Shown in pieces: positions 15,708 through 22,166 of a stretch of 31,154 bases of DNA (position 1 is the first letter of the stretch; each line of letters opens with the position of its first letter). Location: assembly GCA_005801025.1 (NCBI GenBank), contig SYDZ01000040.1, forward strand, positions 1 through 31,154, in the 5' to 3' direction. This stretch comes from Actinomycetota bacterium (lineage in GTDB: Bacteria > Actinomycetota > Acidimicrobiia > Acidimicrobiales > Ilumatobacteraceae). Under the pieces are notes generated by a model that saw only the letters and a list, made by a program, of their open reading frames with translations, did no database searches and was not told the origin of the DNA. The position numbers and the translations under genes were made by a program.

Positions 15708-16526
15708 TCAGCCAGCGACCATCACTTCTTGGTCGGCTGGGGTGCCAAGGCGGGGAGCGGTTCCGATACCCAATTCGGGGGACTCAAAGGTCAAAGTTCC
15801 AGATTCAAGGTCAAGAAAAATCTGGCTCTCTGGACTACACCACTTTTCGTACTCTTCGGCCCATTCTCCAGCGTCATCAGCACCTGAAATGTCATAACGA
15901 ATATGGCAGATGAGTCCTAAAATCTCTGCTTCGGTGAGCGCCCCACCGGCTTTTTCCCCTTGGGCGGGCATCACTCCACCGTTGTAAGACCGGGGATAGT
16001 GAGCCCCGCCCTCGCGATTCGGATCGCCGTAGGATGCGACTCCGGCGGCCTCGTAGGCCTCGGTTCCGGCATACACCCAATTCAACATGTCTTCAATATG
16101 AGGGAAAGTCTTCAACGACTCACCGTCTTTCAAGACTCGACCGGCACCACCTGCGCCGTCGGCACCGTGACAACTTGCGCAGGCACCGTAGTTCTCCATT
16201 CCGAGAGCAATCGGACCCTGTGCTTCGGCTTTTTGCGGCTCCAAGCCACGGACGTACATGAACAAGAAAATGGGCATCAAAGCAAGCGTGGCCATGGCCC
16301 AAGATGGGATGCGACCACGCGTCTTGGCGGCCGTGACATAGGCCGGATCGGGCTTCTTTGCGGGCTTTTGAGCCTCAGTTTCCACCAAAACTCGGGCGGT
16401 GGGTGTCGTTGCGCCAGTCGTCGCCGGAACTGCAGCGCCTGCAGAAACCTCTGTCGAAGAGGCATCCCCGCCAGCGGCCTTTCGGTCGCGGGATCGTTTT
16501 AAGAGGTGCTCGGGAATTTCGGTCAC
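15708..16526 (-). CDS. Membrane-anchored monoheme cytochrome c
   Basis: One TM helix, CASCH, distal VMPAQG Met; SD AAGGA before GTG. Confidence 0.85.
   Translation of the reverse strand: MTEIPEHLLKRSRDRKAAGGDASSTEVSAGAAVPATTGATTPTARVLVETEAQKPAKKPDPAYVTAAKTRGRIPSWAMATLALMPIFLFMYVRGLEPQKAEAQGPIALGMENYGACASCHGADGAGGAGRVLKDGESLKTFPHIEDMLNWVYAGTEAYEAAGVASYGDPNREGGAHYPRSYNGGVMPAQGEKAGGALTEAEILGLICHIRYDISGADDAGEWAEEYEKWCSPESQIFLDLESGTLTFESPELGIGTAPRLGTPADQEVMVAG
16494..16526 (-). repeat. MTEIPEHLLKR coding motif, copy 1
   Basis: Identical 11-aa N-terminus to the gene at 18661. Confidence 0.9.
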
Positions 16527-16628
16527 GGGCCAGTCCTTTCGGGCGTGGGGTACGACAATTTTTTGACAACGACCGAGTGGCTGTCGTCTTGAATAAGAAG
16601 ACTAGAGCGCGAGTGAGGCTATGACGGA

Positions 16629-16665
16629 ATTCCTAGCCTTTTCTGGGGCAAAAACTCCTAGGAAT
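16629..16665. repeat. Inverted repeat ATTCCTAG...CTAGGAAT in the divergent promoter region
   Basis: Perfect 8-bp arms at 16629-16636 and 16658-16665. Confidence 0.5.
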
Positions 16666-16680
16666 CTTGTCACTTAGGTA

Positions 16681-16698
16681 CCGTGAACTAACGCACAA
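16681..16698. promoter_or_regulatory. Possible Rex operator CCGTGAACTAACGCACAA
   Basis: 10 of 14 informative positions match TTGTGAA-N4-TTCACAA; lies between the divergent respiratory units. Confidence 0.35.
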
Positions 16699-16944
16699 CC
16701 CACCTCAGGGGTAGTCCACGGCGATAGACCTCAAGTAGTGAAAGATTCCGATTTTCAGCAATGCCGTCATAATTTTCTGTGTGCCCGAAATCTTTGTTTG
16801 TTCTTGTGAGTGAGTTGGGTCGCGCGAGGCTCTTGACGACTAAGGTTCTAGTCAGTTCTTCTAGAGATTTTTAATACAGCTAAGTCCACGAAACTCAAAC
16901 ATGTATCGACCTCGTTACAAGGCACGGAAGGGAATACCGGCTAG

Positions 16945-17421
16945 ATGCTGGCGATTGACATCCTGAAATGGCCAGGAATGAATCAGGCTTTCCTGTTCTC
17001 CTTGGCTTTGACAACAATTCTTGCGGGTCTTGTTTTTGTGTACGGCAAACGCCGTCCTATCGGTACTCCCATGTCATGGGGCGAGGCGATGTTTGGCTCT
17101 GTGTACGCATTTTTCCTGATGTTCTTGGCTTACGGAGTTGTGCCTCATCAATGGTTAGTCCATGTTCAAAATGAACTCGGTTGGCAATCCGACAAGCCAT
17201 TCCTCGGACCGGGATCAATCTTTAAATCCCAAGCAGCCGGTGGAAGTTTCCCGTTTGATATCAACTATCTGCAGATTGGTGATATCGCCGTCACTGGTAT
17301 TTATGGATTGTTTCTGGGCGCTCAGATTTACATGTGGACGTGGTGGCAAAAGCGTGGCGCAACAAAGTCCACCGAGGTTGAGCAATCTAGTTACGGTCGT
17401 CCTTTGGTGAAGAAGGCATAA
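16945..17421 (+). CDS. Uncharacterised membrane protein (about 3 TM), first gene of the respiratory operon
   Basis: 158 aa hydrophobic ORF; GGAAGG upstream; 4 nt from the ferredoxin gene. Confidence 0.75.
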   Translation: MLAIDILKWPGMNQAFLFSLALTTILAGLVFVYGKRRPIGTPMSWGEAMFGSVYAFFLMFLAYGVVPHQWLVHVQNELGWQSDKPFLGPGSIFKSQAAGGSFPFDINYLQIGDIAVTGIYGLFLGAQIYMWTWWQKRGATKSTEVEQSSYGRPLVKKA

Positions 17422-17425
17422 TCCC

Positions 17426-17839
17426 ATGACTCGCACTGACGCCAATCCGCCAATGATGCCGTACTCCGACCAGTATCAACTGGTTGAAGTTGACGCTGAT
17501 TATCTCACCAAGGCGGTGAAGCCCAAGCAATTCATTCATATCGACCAGTCGGAATGCATCATGTGCGAGGGTTGCGTTGATATCTGTCCGTGGAAGTGCA
17601 TCCACATGGTGACTCCCGATGCTGTGGCAGAAGCCACCAACACCGAGCTCCCTGGGCTTGACCCTAACGACCATGTTCTGTTCATTATTGATGATGATGT
17701 TTGTACGCGTTGTGCACTGTGCGTCGATCGGTGTCCGACCGGCGTCATCATTCTTGGCAAGGCTGGTGCGGCTCTCGCAACTGGCGACACTCACACACGT
17801 ACCGCTAATCACGGTTACGCATATGGAATGCGTTTCTAG
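17426..17839 (+). CDS. 2x[4Fe-4S] dicluster ferredoxin-like protein
   Basis: CIMCEGCVDICP and CTRCALCVDRCP; no signal peptide or TM. Confidence 0.92.
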   Translation: MTRTDANPPMMPYSDQYQLVEVDADYLTKAVKPKQFIHIDQSECIMCEGCVDICPWKCIHMVTPDAVAEATNTELPGLDPNDHVLFIIDDDVCTRCALCVDRCPTGVIILGKAGAALATGDTHTRTANHGYAYGMRF

Positions 17840-17850
17840 GAGAAAAACCC

Positions 17851-18633
17851 ATGGCAAAAGTCATTGACGATCCTCGTCCAACAGCAAAAGAGCGTCTGAA
17901 TCAGACGGTAGAGAATGTTCAAGGCAGTCAAGCCTGGAACTCAATCTTCCGTCCTGGTTCTATTTTCCGTAAGGGCTACACCGATAGCCCACGTAACCGC
18001 TCGTACGTCATCATGAACTCGGTGCTTTATCACTTGCATCCCGTGAAGGTCAAGCGTCATGCCGTCAAGGTGAGCTACACCTTGTGTTTGGGTGGACTCA
18101 GTTTCTTCCTCTTCATTCACTTAACGGTGACAGGCATTTTCTTGATGTTCTTCTACCGCCCTGAAGCCACGGCAGCGTGGAATGACATCAGTAGTTTGCA
18201 GACCTCGGTGGCCTTCGGATTACTTGTGCGAAATATGCATCGATGGGGAGCACACTTAATGGTGCTCTCGGTGTTCTTGCACATGGCCCGTGTTTTTTAT
18301 CATGGTGCGTACAAAGCTCCGCGTGAATTTAACTGGGTGATCGGTGTCGTCTTATTGACACTGACCTTGCTCCTTTCCTTCACAGGTTATTTGCTTCCAT
18401 GGGATCAGTTGTCAATGTGGGCGGTCGCCGTGGGTACCAACATGATGGGGTATACCCCAGTCTTTGGTTCTCAAGTGCGTTTTGTATTGCTCGGTGGTGT
18501 TGAGATCGGTTCTGAGACGTTGCTGCGATGGTATGTGCTGCATGTTCTCATGTTGCCTTTCGTCATCGTGATTTTCATGGCTATCCACTTCTGGCGTGTC
18601 CGCAAGGACGGTGGCATCTCAGGTCCGTTGTGA
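17851..18633 (+). CDS. petB: Cytochrome b N-terminal subunit (cytochrome b6-like)
   Basis: CLGG (heme-ci Cys), RNMHRWGAH..FLHMARV, GYLLPWDQ, LHV..AIHF; ends GISGPL like cytochrome b6. Confidence 0.9.
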   Translation: MAKVIDDPRPTAKERLNQTVENVQGSQAWNSIFRPGSIFRKGYTDSPRNRSYVIMNSVLYHLHPVKVKRHAVKVSYTLCLGGLSFFLFIHLTVTGIFLMFFYRPEATAAWNDISSLQTSVAFGLLVRNMHRWGAHLMVLSVFLHMARVFYHGAYKAPREFNWVIGVVLLTLTLLLSFTGYLLPWDQLSMWAVAVGTNMMGYTPVFGSQVRFVLLGGVEIGSETLLRWYVLHVLMLPFVIVIFMAIHFWRVRKDGGISGPL

Positions 18634-18660
18634 CCAGTGCCTGAAAGGAAATGACTCAAC

Positions 18661-18693
18661 ATGACTGAAATCCCCGAACACCTTTTGAAGCGA
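18661..18693 (+). repeat. MTEIPEHLLKR coding motif, copy 2 (degenerate copy 3 IPAHLLER at 18778-18801)
   Basis: Translation identical to copy 1. Confidence 0.9.
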
Positions 18694-19413
18694 GCGCAAG
18701 CCGCTCGCGATCAGGCCGCTGCGCAGGCTGGCGCGGCGTCCCCTAGTTCCAGTGATGCTTCAGCCGCAGATCCGCGCATTCCGGCTCATCTTCTTGAGCG
18801 CAGCAAAGCGGCGAAAGATAAAACTGGCGGAGCGCAAGTTGCTGTCGCCGAAAAGGTGGGTGCCCTTGTGGGTGCTGCTCCAGTCGCCGCAGGTCTGCCC
18901 ATCGGAGCGGGTCCAGGTGGTCATACTCAACGTTTGTTGACAGTCGTCAAGTCGGGCTCGATTCAAGATGTCAAAGCCACCCCAGTTGACAAAGTGCATA
19001 CGTGGCCTCACCTGCTGGCAGTTGAATTTGTGGCGGCCGTTGCTTGCACTGCGTTTTTGTTCTTCGTGGCAATCTTCGTCAATGCTCCCTTGTTGCAGTT
19101 GGCTAACCCCAACCAAACGCCCAACCCGTCAAAGGCTCCTTGGTACTTCTTGGGACTTCAAGAATTGTTGACGATGTTCCACCCGATGGTGGCTGGTGTG
19201 ACAATTCCTGGAGTGGCATTGTTTGCTTTAATTTTGGCTCCGTTCATTGACAAGAATCCGTCCAACAAACCTGAGGACCGCAAGTTTGCGACTTCGATCA
19301 TGACTATTCACCTGATGTTTTGGGCCGTGTTGGTCATCATCGGATCTTTCTTCCGTGGCCCTGGTTTCAACTTCGTCTTCCCTTGGCGGGACGGCCTGTT
19401 CTTCGAGTTGTGA
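18661..19413 (+). CDS. petD: Cytochrome b C-terminal subunit (subunit IV-like) with long N-terminal extension
   Basis: WPHLL, ANPNQTPNPSKAPWYFLGLQELL, PFIDKNP. Confidence 0.85.
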   Translation: MTEIPEHLLKRAQAARDQAAAQAGAASPSSSDASAADPRIPAHLLERSKAAKDKTGGAQVAVAEKVGALVGAAPVAAGLPIGAGPGGHTQRLLTVVKSGSIQDVKATPVDKVHTWPHLLAVEFVAAVACTAFLFFVAIFVNAPLLQLANPNQTPNPSKAPWYFLGLQELLTMFHPMVAGVTIPGVALFALILAPFIDKNPSNKPEDRKFATSIMTIHLMFWAVLVIIGSFFRGPGFNFVFPWRDGLFFEL

Positions 19414-19426
19414 GGATCACACTTTT

Positions 19427-20284
19427 ATGACACCGCTAGCAACAATCGTTTTAGTTATCCTCGCCCTAGTGGTGTTGGCTGCTGTCATGGTCATTACTTC
19501 AGCGCGACGCTCTGATGTACGCGGCGCAGGAGCCCTTGCGCGAGAAACTGTGAAGCGTGACAAGTCAATTAAGGCTGAAGCGGGAGATGCTCCTTCAGGA
19601 TCTGCGTATGAATCACAGGCAATCGCTACTCGCACCGCCGTTCTTGAAAAAGCTACTGAAGTCGCCCCAGTGGTCTGGCGAGCGCCAGATCAAGAGGCCG
19701 TTGATGTTTCCCGTCGCCAGTTTTTCAACCGTGCGTCAATCTTTTTGGTGCTCACGGGTACAGCGGCATTTGGCGCTTCGCTGATTGCCTTTTTGTGGCC
19801 TCGGGCTGGCGGCGGTTTCGGTTCCAAGGTGAATGTCGGTCGCCTTGATGACTTGATAGCGCAGATTCGCAGTGAACGCGGTTTTGTCTATAAGCCCGAG
19901 GCGCGCACTTGGCTGACCACTTACCCCGCTGATTCTCTCCCCAAGGCGCGGTTGTCGTACGGCAATCAGGGGCCAGTTTTAAACGGTATGGAAAATGGCC
20001 TTGTCGCGCTCTACCAGAAATGTCCCCACCTGGGTTGTCGAGTTCCTGAATGCAAGAGTTCGCAGTGGTTTGAATGCCCATGTCATGGATCGCAGTACGA
20101 CCGTGTTGGTGAGAAGAAGGCAGGTCCTGCGCCACGTGGTATGGATCGCTTTGGTATCAACGTGTCTAATGGAAACGTCATTGTTGACACGGGGACAATA
20201 TTTAATGGTCCTGCCATTGGTATCAACACGACTGGACAGGAAGCCGAAGGACCCCACTGCGTTTCCGGAGAGGCAAAGCACTGA
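19427..20284 (+). CDS. petC: Rieske [2Fe-2S] subunit
   Basis: CPHLGC and CPCHGSQY; internal SRRQFF Tat motif; ATG 19427 after GAGGA. Confidence 0.92.
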   Translation: MTPLATIVLVILALVVLAAVMVITSARRSDVRGAGALARETVKRDKSIKAEAGDAPSGSAYESQAIATRTAVLEKATEVAPVVWRAPDQEAVDVSRRQFFNRASIFLVLTGTAAFGASLIAFLWPRAGGGFGSKVNVGRLDDLIAQIRSERGFVYKPEARTWLTTYPADSLPKARLSYGNQGPVLNGMENGLVALYQKCPHLGCRVPECKSSQWFECPCHGSQYDRVGEKKAGPAPRGMDRFGINVSNGNVIVDTGTIFNGPAIGINTTGQEAEGPHCVSGEAKH

Positions 20285-20286
20285 TC

Positions 20287-21351
20287 ATGATTTCGCTCGT
20301 CACTTCTACTTTCGCCTCGCTCATAGCACTGTTTTTCGTCATCGGTTACGTCACCTATGCATTCTTCAATCGATCAGCGGGTCGCGCTGAGATTGGTTCA
20401 GAGATTGAACTTGCCGCTAACCGTAAAGAATATTTTGATGATGAAATTCTTGAGGGTAAGCGCCTGCAGAAAATGCAATTGCTCGGTGTCTTGATGCTGG
20501 CAACGATCACTATTGGATTACCTGCTTACTGGATTTTGGAACCGAGTCGTCAAGCCGGCGCAACAAGCGGTAAAGAAAATCGCTTTATTGAGTGGGGCTC
20601 AAACCTTTTTGCTCCAACTGCTGAGGGTGGATTCAACTGCGCTGGTTGTCATGGTGGAATGAAAGGCCCAGGTGGTGCCGCTCCGTACACAATCACTGAT
20701 TCTAAAACTGGTGAAGTGAAATCAGTGTTGTGGAAAGCCCCAGCAATTAACACCGTCTTTTATCGTTTTGATGAAAGTGAAGTTCGTTTCATCCTGCAAT
20801 ACGGCCGTCCGTTTTCGCCAATGTCCCCGTGGGGGATTGAGGGTGGTGGACCACTCAACGCCCAACAGATTGACACGTTATTGGCGTACCTCAAGAGCAT
20901 TCAGATTCCGCGTGAAGACTGCATCGTGGCTGACGCCAAGCCGTTGAACTGTGAAGGTGGACATTTGCCTCTGGTTGAGCAGGAAAAGGTCCAAGCCGCC
21001 GCCGAAAAGTCTGTCGCGGATGGTACCTACGGCTCAATTGGGGAAGCGCTTTTCAATCTCGAATTAGGATCAGGTGGTTTTAGTTGTGCTCGTTGCCATA
21101 CGCCTGGATGGAGTTGGGGAGAGCCTGGACAGACTGGTTCGGGCGCCTATGGCTGGAACCTCACCGGTGGAGCGACGAACAGTCACTTCGCGACTGAGCA
21201 AGAAATGATCAACTTCATCAAGGCTGGCTCAAAGTTCGGAGCGAAGTACGGTGTCCAAGGACAAGGTTCGGGTCGGATGCCTGGCTTTGGAGATTTATTA
21301 ACTGCTGAACAGATCCAACAGATCGTGAACTACGTGCGGAACGAATTATGA
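20287..21351 (+). CDS. Membrane-bound diheme cytochrome c
   Basis: CAGCH (20638-20652) and CARCH (21085-21099); distal Met in PMSPW and RMPGF; two N-terminal hydrophobic helices. Confidence 0.9.
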   Translation: MISLVTSTFASLIALFFVIGYVTYAFFNRSAGRAEIGSEIELAANRKEYFDDEILEGKRLQKMQLLGVLMLATITIGLPAYWILEPSRQAGATSGKENRFIEWGSNLFAPTAEGGFNCAGCHGGMKGPGGAAPYTITDSKTGEVKSVLWKAPAINTVFYRFDESEVRFILQYGRPFSPMSPWGIEGGGPLNAQQIDTLLAYLKSIQIPREDCIVADAKPLNCEGGHLPLVEQEKVQAAAEKSVADGTYGSIGEALFNLELGSGGFSCARCHTPGWSWGEPGQTGSGAYGWNLTGGATNSHFATEQEMINFIKAGSKFGAKYGVQGQGSGRMPGFGDLLTAEQIQQIVNYVRNEL

Positions 21352-22166
21352 GCACCATGTTAAGCATCGCTTGGGAACCCGAAATTCGCGGGCTTCTCAC
21401 GGTCATTATCGCCGTTGTTGCCTTATGTGGAAGTGTTTACCTGATCCTTGCAACCAACATGGGTGCTCGCTTAGGACTCTTAGTTGCGCTTGCGGGACTC
21501 AGCGGTTGGATGGTCATGATGGGTGTTATCTGGATGACCTACGGCATTGGTCTCAAAGGTAATGAGCCGTCATGGAAGCCGGCGCAACCCTTCACAGTCG
21601 TACGCGATGTAGCCCTGTTACCACAGGCCGAAGTGCTCGTTAACTCGGTGAAGATTCCTGAGGGGGCATCTCCAGTTGAGGCTGCTGCTGTCGGAGCGGA
21701 AGCTCTGCGAGAAGAAAATTGGAAGGTTCTCCCAATCGATGATAAGGGTCGTGGTCAGTCCATCGCGGCGGCAGACGAAATCATTCAAGTTGAAGCCGAG
21801 TTGTACGCCGGCGGGGAATACCAAGCAGTCGCGGTGTATGACCGCGGTGGTGAGCGTTATCCAAAGATCGGCGACAAAGTTGACTTCCTTGCCTTCTTTC
21901 ACAAACCGCATTACGCGATTGTGGAAATTGCCGCTCTTGTGCCACAGAGAGTCGAACCTGGTCGCGCTCCTGCACGGCCCGTTATTGACGAGAGTAAGTC
22001 TCACCAATATATTGTCATGATTCGCGACCTTGGCACCAAGCGTCAACCAGCGTTGCTGGTCACCTTTGGCTCTGGAATCATTTTCTTCATCTGTTGCTGG
22101 ATGTTGCATCGCCGTGATCGTACTTTGGCTGCCAATCTTGCCATGCCTGTTCCTGCGGTGGCCTAA
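21348..22166 (+). CDS. Uncharacterised membrane protein between cytochrome c and nuoA
   Basis: 272 aa with two N-terminal and one C-terminal hydrophobic helices; ATGA overlap with the cytochrome c gene. Confidence 0.75.
   Translation: MSTMLSIAWEPEIRGLLTVIIAVVALCGSVYLILATNMGARLGLLVALAGLSGWMVMMGVIWMTYGIGLKGNEPSWKPAQPFTVVRDVALLPQAEVLVNSVKIPEGASPVEAAAVGAEALREENWKVLPIDDKGRGQSIAAADEIIQVEAELYAGGEYQAVAVYDRGGERYPKIGDKVDFLAFFHKPHYAIVEIAALVPQRVEPGRAPARPVIDESKSHQYIVMIRDLGTKRQPALLVTFGSGIIFFICCWMLHRRDRTLAANLAMPVPAVA

Follow-up and report, generated by a model that had tools for sequence, protein, structure and literature searches.

A short peptide common to the cytochrome c and subunit IV of a split b6-type complex III in Acidimicrobiia: a candidate docking helix

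The DNA analyzed here (hereafter the window) stems from a freshwater bacterium and comprises 31,154 nucleotides of contig SYDZ01000040.1 (assembly GCA_005801025.1; 1.6 Mb, 69% complete), and the names of homologs point to the family Ilumatobacteraceae, class Acidimicrobiia. It contains an operon for a split, ferredoxin-bearing b6-type complex III and, transcribed divergently from this operon, a gene encoding a monoheme cytochrome c. The subunit IV encoded in the operon is of the b6f type and falls into the APWY clade, as indicated by its Cytochrom_B_C domain, the presence of a separate cytochrome b6 gene and the residues APWY within NPSKAPWYFLGLQ (NPSKAPWYF). The cytochrome c and subunit IV both open with the same eleven residues, MTEIPEHLLKR, and subunit IV carries an additional, internal copy of this motif (DPRIPAHLLERSKAAKDK, residues 37-54). 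Both the identical 11-mer and the third copy had been noted in a preliminary description of this DNA, and the starts of the two open reading frames (ORFs) and a motif profile bear them out.

The core of the motif can be written as [IV]-P-x-H-L-L-x-R-[SA]. A six-frame scan of the assembly with a loose pattern returned the three copies of the window and, in other frames, three loose matches without the remainder of the motif, so its sharing by two unrelated proteins lies far beyond chance. Codons 2-11 of the two genes differ six times (ACC/ACT, ATT/ATC, GAG/GAA, CTC/CTT, TTA/TTG and AAA/AAG), always synonymously, which confirms the earlier view that the peptide rather than the DNA is under selection. 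Each copy is followed by an Ala/Gly/Ser/Pro-rich stretch ahead of the first hydrophobic helix (residues 73-92 in cytochrome c; from residue 119 in subunit IV). The haem domain of a c-type cytochrome lies outside the cell, beyond its single anchor helix, and the N-terminus of PetD is located on the n-side; from this established topology the motif copies are placed in the cytoplasm, on low-complexity linkers, in agreement with the initial proposal.

Among 114 cluster representatives of the cytochrome c family, conservation reaches 98% over residues 1-12, compared with 79% in the haem domain and much lower values in the tail following the motif; the first 12 residues are thus the most conserved part of the family. 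Homologs with only 53-58% identity still open with MTEIPEHLLKRS. The motif stands at the start of both proteins in 37 genomes representing >20 families, and in most of the identical stretches 3-8 codons differ synonymously (range 0-8), evidence against recent gene conversion. This explanation was also rejected for a genome of another family of the class (G036), in which the first 16 residues of both proteins are identical, yet 10 codons differ. An explanation at the RNA or DNA level was discarded as well: the 5′ regions fold ordinarily (z -1.0 and +0.6) and synonymous sites differ.

Residues 2-3 of the two proteins co-vary within genomes (TE/TE; AE/AE in two cases, VE/VE in three and VD/VD in one, with two mismatches), a pattern that two ligands sharing a binding site would be expected to show. 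Position 2 is invariably occupied by a small residue (T, A, V, S or P), which permits removal of the initiator Met. Strict conservation was found for Ile4, Pro5, His7, Leu8, Leu9, Arg11 and Ser/Ala12, while the other basic positions are variable. The preliminary description regarded the His as invariant and as a possible ligand of metal or heme. It is found at its motif position in ~96% of cases, but is replaced by Tyr in some cytochromes c (P0191, L038, L047, L162) and often by Leu, Ile, Ala, Val or Asp in the Nfu_N-type carriers described below. Since these replacements occur in real carriers, obligate ligation is unlikely, and a metal- or haem-binding peptide, which calls for an invariant ligand, was rejected.

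The distribution of the motif was examined with a profile of 18 columns, as the preliminary description had proposed for actinobacterial proteomes. It matched all 31 sampled relatives and 213 of the 301 sampled genomes of Acidimicrobiia; in a phylum-wide draw, the 17 matching genomes all belonged to this class. No match was obtained in ~278 genomes from other classes of Actinomycetota. A search of the Protein Data Bank (PDB) with the profile likewise gave no match in solved chains of bc1, b6f or bcc complexes, so the supposed absence of the motif from these complexes was upheld. Only 3-4 copies are present per complete genome of Acidimicrobiia, and for this reason we regard the motif as a specific tag rather than a generic signal.

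The exceptions within the order are instructive. Four families lack any match (0/16, 0/2, 0/1 and 0/1 genomes), and in the five genomes checked from them no subunit IV was found with the query used. These five genomes encode instead a long cytochrome b (open frames of 522-722 amino acids), as is usual for actinobacterial QcrB. Based on these observations, the motif travels with the split, ferredoxin-bearing b6-type complex. A split cytochrome b of Ilumatobacter coccineum has been placed in the PEWY-cyt c or APWY clade, and no APWY complex had been characterised at that time (Kao and Hunte 2014, PMC4122944). The complex of the window belongs with these split cytochrome b/Rieske complexes through the APWY of its subunit IV, and neither an N-terminal extension nor a common peptide is mentioned for them in that study. 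Features of the locus are summarized in the table.

Table. Features of the b6-type complex III locus in the window, with the motif-related accessory gene of Saccharibacteria in the last line (coordinates on its own contigs)
Feature	Position	Strand	Basis or context
Monoheme cytochrome c, membrane-anchored, 272 amino acids, GTG start	15708-16526	-	Pfam Cytochrom_C (weak), one CxxCH
Motif copy on cytochrome c, residues 1-18 (MTEIPEHLLKRSRDRKAA)	16473-16526	-	Motif hidden Markov model (HMM), 44.8 bits, E 3e-11 per genome
Low-complexity cytoplasmic linker of cytochrome c, residues 19-72	16311-16472	-	Sequence; columns poorly conserved
Single membrane anchor helix of cytochrome c, residues 73-92	16251-16310	-	Hydrophobic stretch
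Haem-binding CxxCH of cytochrome c, residues 116-120	16167-16181	-	Sequence
Protein with three transmembrane (TM) helices, head of the b6-type operon	16945-17421	+	ORF list
2x[4Fe-4S] ferredoxin	17426-17839	+	ORF list, Pfam
Cytochrome b6, N-terminal extension of ~70 amino acids	17851-18633	+	ORF list, Pfam
Subunit IV, PetD-like, 250 amino acids, ATG start, APWY at Qo	18661-19413	+	Pfam Cytochrom_B_C (PF00032), 5.6e-9; 8000 homologs
Motif copy 1 on subunit IV, residues 1-18 (MTEIPEHLLKRAQAARDQ)	18661-18714	+	ORF start; motif HMM
Inter-copy linker of subunit IV, Ala/Ser/Pro-rich, residues 19-36	18715-18768	+	Length and sequence vary among orthologs
Motif copy 2 on subunit IV, residues 37-54 (DPRIPAHLLERSKAAKDK)	18769-18822	+	Motif HMM, 38.2 bits
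Second flexible linker of subunit IV, residues 55-83	18823-18909	+	Ortholog alignment; AlphaFold2 pLDDT <50
Conserved cytoplasmic segment of subunit IV, GPGGHTQRLLTVVKSGSIQDVKA..DKVH.WPHLL	18910-19017	+	Invariant columns, 13 orthologs
Rieske protein	19355-20284	+	ORF list, Pfam
Diheme cytochrome c	20287-21351	+	ORF list, Pfam
Membrane protein, nuoA next	21348-22166	+	ORF list, Pfam
Saccharibacteria accessory gene	L061:337-1362; L067:10001-11008		Between a 65-amino-acid ORF (97% conserved) and a ROK-family gene

The gene order between the cytochrome c and subunit IV genes is retained in other families, and the products encoded there (3-TM protein, ferredoxin and cytochrome b6) are candidate partners of the motif. 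In G036 (L154:715-6654) the motif-bearing cytochrome c gene lies directly 3′ of a gene for a 665-amino-acid haem-copper-oxidase-like protein with a C-terminal CxxCH; genes resembling ccsA, resB and resA adjoin, the b6 operon lies opposite and its subunit IV has a single motif copy. Two further conserved segments were observed at this locus. The conserved segment of subunit IV listed in the table adjoins the first membrane helix and is near-invariant in 13 orthologs down to 59% identity; we know of no PetD counterpart. The 3-TM protein at the head of the operon possesses a conserved tail, ...YGRPL(V/K)... (17375-17421; L154:7100-7148), found in two distant lineages, which may be another short terminal motif.

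The motif has helix propensity. In AlphaFold2 models of subunit IV and of the Nfu_N-fold protein introduced below, a helix begins right after the Pro in each copy; in subunit IV (13 sequences) the helices span residues 6-23 and 42-55, in a model of low confidence (mean predicted local distance difference test score, pLDDT, 50.8). The conserved positions line up on a single narrow face that is polar at its edge. A low hydrophobic moment (0.17-0.34) and a negative mean hydrophobicity (-0.16 to -0.61, Eisenberg scale) make a lipid-seeking helix unlikely. An amphipathic membrane-targeting helix of the MinD/FtsA type, characterized by a high moment and a broad apolar face, was accordingly rejected.

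A fourth copy was identified in genomes of the same genus and family as the window. It forms the C-terminus of a soluble protein of ~150 residues (DSRVPAHLIERSRAARAK), following an acidic Ala/Pro linker. The AlphaFold2 model of this protein has a confident body (mean pLDDT 77.5), a disordered linker and a helical motif, and its best Foldseek matches are Staphylococcus aureus SAV1430 and the N-domain of human NFU1 (probability 1.0). A search for Nfu_N-type proteins gave 126 matches, including one in an unpublished genome (G263) on which no claim rests. Within the order, the presence of this protein by family equals that of the motif, except in one family (f19; 2/3 versus 3/3). The motif-bearing tail is found mainly in Ilumatobacteraceae, and the Nfu_N-type open frames of other families are ~105-140 amino acids long. 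The gene was not found in the incomplete assembly of the window itself, and no respiratory gene lies in the neighbourhood of the Nfu_N-type carrier. The motif is therefore position-independent, being N-terminal in cytochrome c, N-terminal and internal in subunit IV and C-terminal in the Nfu_N-fold protein, and it always stands beside low-complexity linkers.

The preliminary description noted the motif on respiratory subunits only. A restriction to such subunits did not hold in a wider census, in which comparison of the profile with 1.84 billion protein representatives revealed 448 proteins at E <=0.001. When the protein bodies of the best 150 of these 448 were assigned by BLAST, 33 proved to be subunit IV, three cytochrome c and two members of a small-protein family (L041); many of the remaining ones are fragments or frameshifted pieces. 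The motif also occurs on non-respiratory proteins. P0258 (L063:458-1192, on a 1.2-kb contig with 68% G+C) has two copies and a TIR_2 domain (PF13676, 5.4e-16), and may be a defence-type protein carrying the tag. P0336 combines two copies with a chagasin-type inhibitor domain, P0242 ends with four C-terminal copies, and P0241, P0313 and P0352 are membrane proteins. A C-terminal motif is also found in the L041/P0317 family, and several soluble proteins with motif copies have no assigned function. Two copies are present in many of the foreign carriers. Some apparent metagenome fusions, such as P0254 with a fragment of an aminotransferase and several Arg/Pro-rich tails, probably represent chimeras or frameshifted pieces of subunit IV and were left uncounted. 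Occurrence on many non-respiratory proteins as a generic N-terminal signal had been named in advance as an observation that would refute the proposal. This applies in part, since such carriers exist, although any one genome of Acidimicrobiia contains only 3-4 copies.

The longest arrangement was found in P0275, a protein of 618 amino acids from a JGI metagenome. It contains six to seven tandem units of ~32 residues (IPEHLLRRSAEAKAKATG.SVEEVLAEL), each composed of the motif helix, a Gly turn and a second helix, joined by Ala/Pro linkers and followed by a multi-helix membrane domain. This suggests a small domain of two helices in some lineages, with the short motif as the first of them. Neither the motif nor this repeat has a significant match in Pfam, and PDB profile searches with the motif and the long repeat gave chance-level matches only (EIPAHLLE of PcrA, E 0.44; designed repeat proteins).

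Copies of the motif were also identified in a phage and in Saccharibacteria. A 231-kb jumbo-phage contig of IMG/VR (L152) encodes a 107-residue motif ORF (L152:6001-6324) starting with MTEIPEHLLVRAQKARDD; PHROG matches on this contig include an HNH endonuclease, a phosphoesterase, a kinase and a PurZ-like enzyme. Exact MTEIPEHLLKR has no match in IMG/VR, a shorter pattern returned the same single contig, and tblastn with a 54-residue module gave no match among INPHARED phages. Directly 3′ of the motif ORF, a J-domain-like HPD segment is fused to a kinase-like domain (L152:6436-7530; PHROG kinase, 3.6e-33), and the next gene encodes a phrog_2971 protein.

Two further proteins, P0330 and P0333, consist of two N-terminal motif copies and a body of ~280 residues without assigned function; P0330 gave no usable match in the protein atlas. 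Their contigs have 38-39% G+C, with S1, IF-2, DUF5663, fmt, def and priA as neighbours. The IF-2 encoded on the P0333 contig (L067) shares 86% identity with its counterpart in a Candidatus Saccharibacteria metagenome-assembled genome, and the P0330 contig (L061) is syntenic with L067. The two versions of the gene are only 39% identical, compared with 95-96% identity of their flanks, and in three relatives the gene is absent from the syntenic site, where ~0.5 kb separates the conserved neighbours. Neither the motif nor the gene was found in the five nearest genomes, and the motif is absent from all 301 sampled genomes of Saccharimonadia. The codons are adapted to low G+C, which excludes a recent transfer. 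The gene is accessory and hypervariable but retains the tag, a pattern to be expected of genes for host interaction.

Searches of the full-text literature with motif peptide strings gave no match and keyword searching nothing relevant; we found no description of the motif, which appears to be undescribed. Several known systems resemble it in part. The C-terminal conserved peptide of FtsZ serves as a "landing pad" that binds SepF, FtsA and ZipA. By analogy, it too is a short peptide on a disordered linker, with an acidic-[IV]-P-x-aromatic-L pattern and the role of a docking handle. However, the FtsZ peptide has a Phe anchor, whereas the motif has His or Tyr followed by a basic helix L-x-R-[SA]-x-x-x-[RK], and it sits at the extreme C-terminus of FtsZ, while the motif is N-terminal, internal or C-terminal on other proteins. 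In relatives of the window, FtsZ tails end with D-V-P-[SD]-F-L-K on a disordered linker, separately from the motif, and no FtsZ appeared among the matches of the motif HMM (E up to 0.5) when five genomes were searched. As both the position and the consensus D-[IV]-P-x-F-[LM]-[RKQ] disagree, we consider the FtsZ peptide an analogue and not a relative.

The C-terminal tip of SSB and beta-clamp-binding motifs offer a similar likeness, with one peptide on the flexible tails of unrelated proteins addressing one hub, and docking peptides of this type are copied by mobile elements. They differ in sequence, and the present motif is limited to one bacterial class. In chloroplast b6f, the PetD N-terminus is reported to be an exposed n-side tail with a regulatory or docking role (PMC13287000). 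It is the same subunit with an exposed N-terminal tail at the same location, but the chloroplast tail is reportedly short and works with the STT7 kinase, is not common to cytochrome c and has no sequence similarity to the motif. The helical units of P0275 on Ala/Pro linkers recall swinging-arm mini-domains such as the peripheral-subunit-binding domain of 2-oxoacid dehydrogenase E2, from which they differ in lacking a significant Pfam or PDB match, and the copies of the window have no second helix. Membership in E3_binding was rejected, as P0275 gave no match at E up to 0.1 and the PDB profile searches yielded nothing above chance level.

Two other candidates were discarded. A twin-arginine translocation (Tat) signal peptide, in which S/T-R-R-x-F-L-K precedes a hydrophobic h-region and a cleavage site, is inconsistent with the segment that follows RSRDRK or RSRERRAALG, an acidic or Gly/Ser/Ala-rich linker of ~55 residues that is not hydrophobic, and with the existence of internal and C-terminal copies. 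A ribbon-helix-helix (CopG-like) fold, built of a strand and helices A and B, was matched by the P0275 repeat only below threshold (CopG_antitoxin, E 0.032, 15.4 bits versus a cut-off of 28), and the second helix is missing from the copies of the window. The features expected in the sequence of a short linear docking motif were all found, namely a conserved core, poorly conserved disordered flanks, unrelated carriers and varying positions.

With moderate confidence, we interpret the motif as a docking helix on a tether, directed at a single cytoplasmic site associated with the b6-type complex III and copied by parasites. We infer both that the motif binds a protein and which protein this would be. 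The peptide would form a helix of ~14-18 residues, N-capped by the Pro and composed of the core and a subsequent basic, Ala-rich turn or two, on disordered cytoplasmic tethers; its recognition face probably comprises Ile4, His7, Leu8, Leu9, Arg11 and Ser/Ala12. It would bind one conserved cytoplasmic site, present only in Acidimicrobiia with the split, ferredoxin-bearing complex and most likely located on the complex or supercomplex, e.g. on the ferredoxin of the operon, the N-terminal extension of cytochrome b6 or an orphan membrane subunit. Such docking would retain the separately encoded, membrane-anchored cytochrome c and subunit IV in one place and, in Ilumatobacteraceae, would also recruit the small Nfu_N-fold protein, which is of the Fe-S trafficking type. 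The jumbo-phage ORF, the rare Saccharibacteria genes and the scattered proteins with TIR or inhibitor domains presumably carry the tag to reach the same site.

Docking to a common partner had been suggested in the preliminary description; it is still the best reading and is strengthened by the co-variation of residues 2-3, but exclusivity to respiratory subunits and an invariant His had to be given up. Several observations weigh against our interpretation. The evidence for a link to the complex is co-occurrence in related genomes that are not independent, and outside the order the presence of the Nfu_N-type protein does not track the motif. Drift in several families has changed copy 1 of subunit IV to IPEHLRKRAEEA but left copy 2 and the copy on cytochrome c canonical, so the two N-termini are not always equivalent. 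The subunit IV model is of low confidence, as mentioned above. For the TIR and chagasin-like carriers, no reason to reside at a respiratory complex is apparent, which would agree with a more general hub. Finally, the route by which a Saccharibacteria protein would enter the host cytoplasm is not accounted for.

Among the other explanations, it is possible, though unlikely, that the motif helices bind each other, so that the copies of cytochrome c, subunit IV (two) and the Nfu_N-type protein assemble into a small bundle that needs no receptor. The co-variation of residues 2-3 between both proteins of one genome, the small and fairly constant number of copies (3-4 per genome) and the presence of two copies in many foreign carriers would all agree with self-association. 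The hydrophobic face (Ile4, Leu8, Leu9, Ala/Ser12) is, however, very small, as also reflected by the low moment and negative mean hydrophobicity, a heptad pattern spanning at least three heptads is lacking, a net charge of +1 to +3 would work against association, and in some lineages (G036) there is only one copy per protein. We consider it improbable that the motif is a degradation or quality-control tag, by which an AAA+ protease or adaptor of the FtsH, ClpX or Mpa type removes unassembled subunits. Bacterial degrons are indeed short terminal peptides functional at either end of a protein, and the motif is exposed on accessible cytoplasmic tails of >20 residues, but two copies on a constitutive core subunit, 98% conservation and co-variation of residues 2-3 would be unusual for a degron. 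Such proteases are also universal, whereas the motif is restricted to a single class and gave no match in the genomes sampled from families without the split b6 complex; moreover, a phage or parasite would hardly benefit from marking its own proteins for destruction.

The basic tail after the hydrophobic core (KRSRDRK, RSKAAK) and the terminal placement on flexible linkers, as in the targeting helices of MinD and FtsA, would suit a basic helix that binds lipid head groups, rRNA or DNA. This appears quite improbable: the helix is too polar to be lipid-seeking, strict conservation covers Ile, Pro, His, both Leu and one Arg but not the remaining basic positions, two carriers are themselves integral membrane proteins, and a restriction to genomes with the split complex would not be expected. 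The least credible and largely refuted explanation is a generic N-terminal signal for translation initiation, targeting or insertion, or a His-based metal or haem site. In its favour, the first copy invariably begins at the N-terminal residue, position 2 is small throughout and the His is conserved, but there are internal and C-terminal copies, including some on soluble proteins, the two genes have no RNA structure in common and their synonymous sites are free, only 3-4 copies occur per genome, and the His is replaceable.

In bacterial replication and division, short docking peptides carried on flexible tails have an organising role; to our knowledge none has been described for respiratory chains, where few factors are known to retain membrane-anchored electron carriers close to their complexes. 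A bolder version of the docking interpretation, which we put forward only as a doubtful possibility, holds that the tag addresses a docking platform on the ferredoxin-bearing b6-type complex III, and that a phage and epibiotic Saccharibacteria copied it to reach this platform inside the host. If this were true, the tag could serve to match uncultured Saccharibacteria and phages to their Acidimicrobiia hosts, and it would constitute a bacterial case of host-motif mimicry, as seen in eukaryotic viruses. The motif provides a precise handle of 10-18 residues on the complex III of Acidimicrobiia from fresh and marine waters, which is abundant but uncharacterised; Ilumatobacter is available as a cultured relative. 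The copies in the phage ORF and in the hypervariable Saccharibacteria gene suggest that parasites exploit the same site, which would bear on the prediction of hosts for uncultured epibionts.

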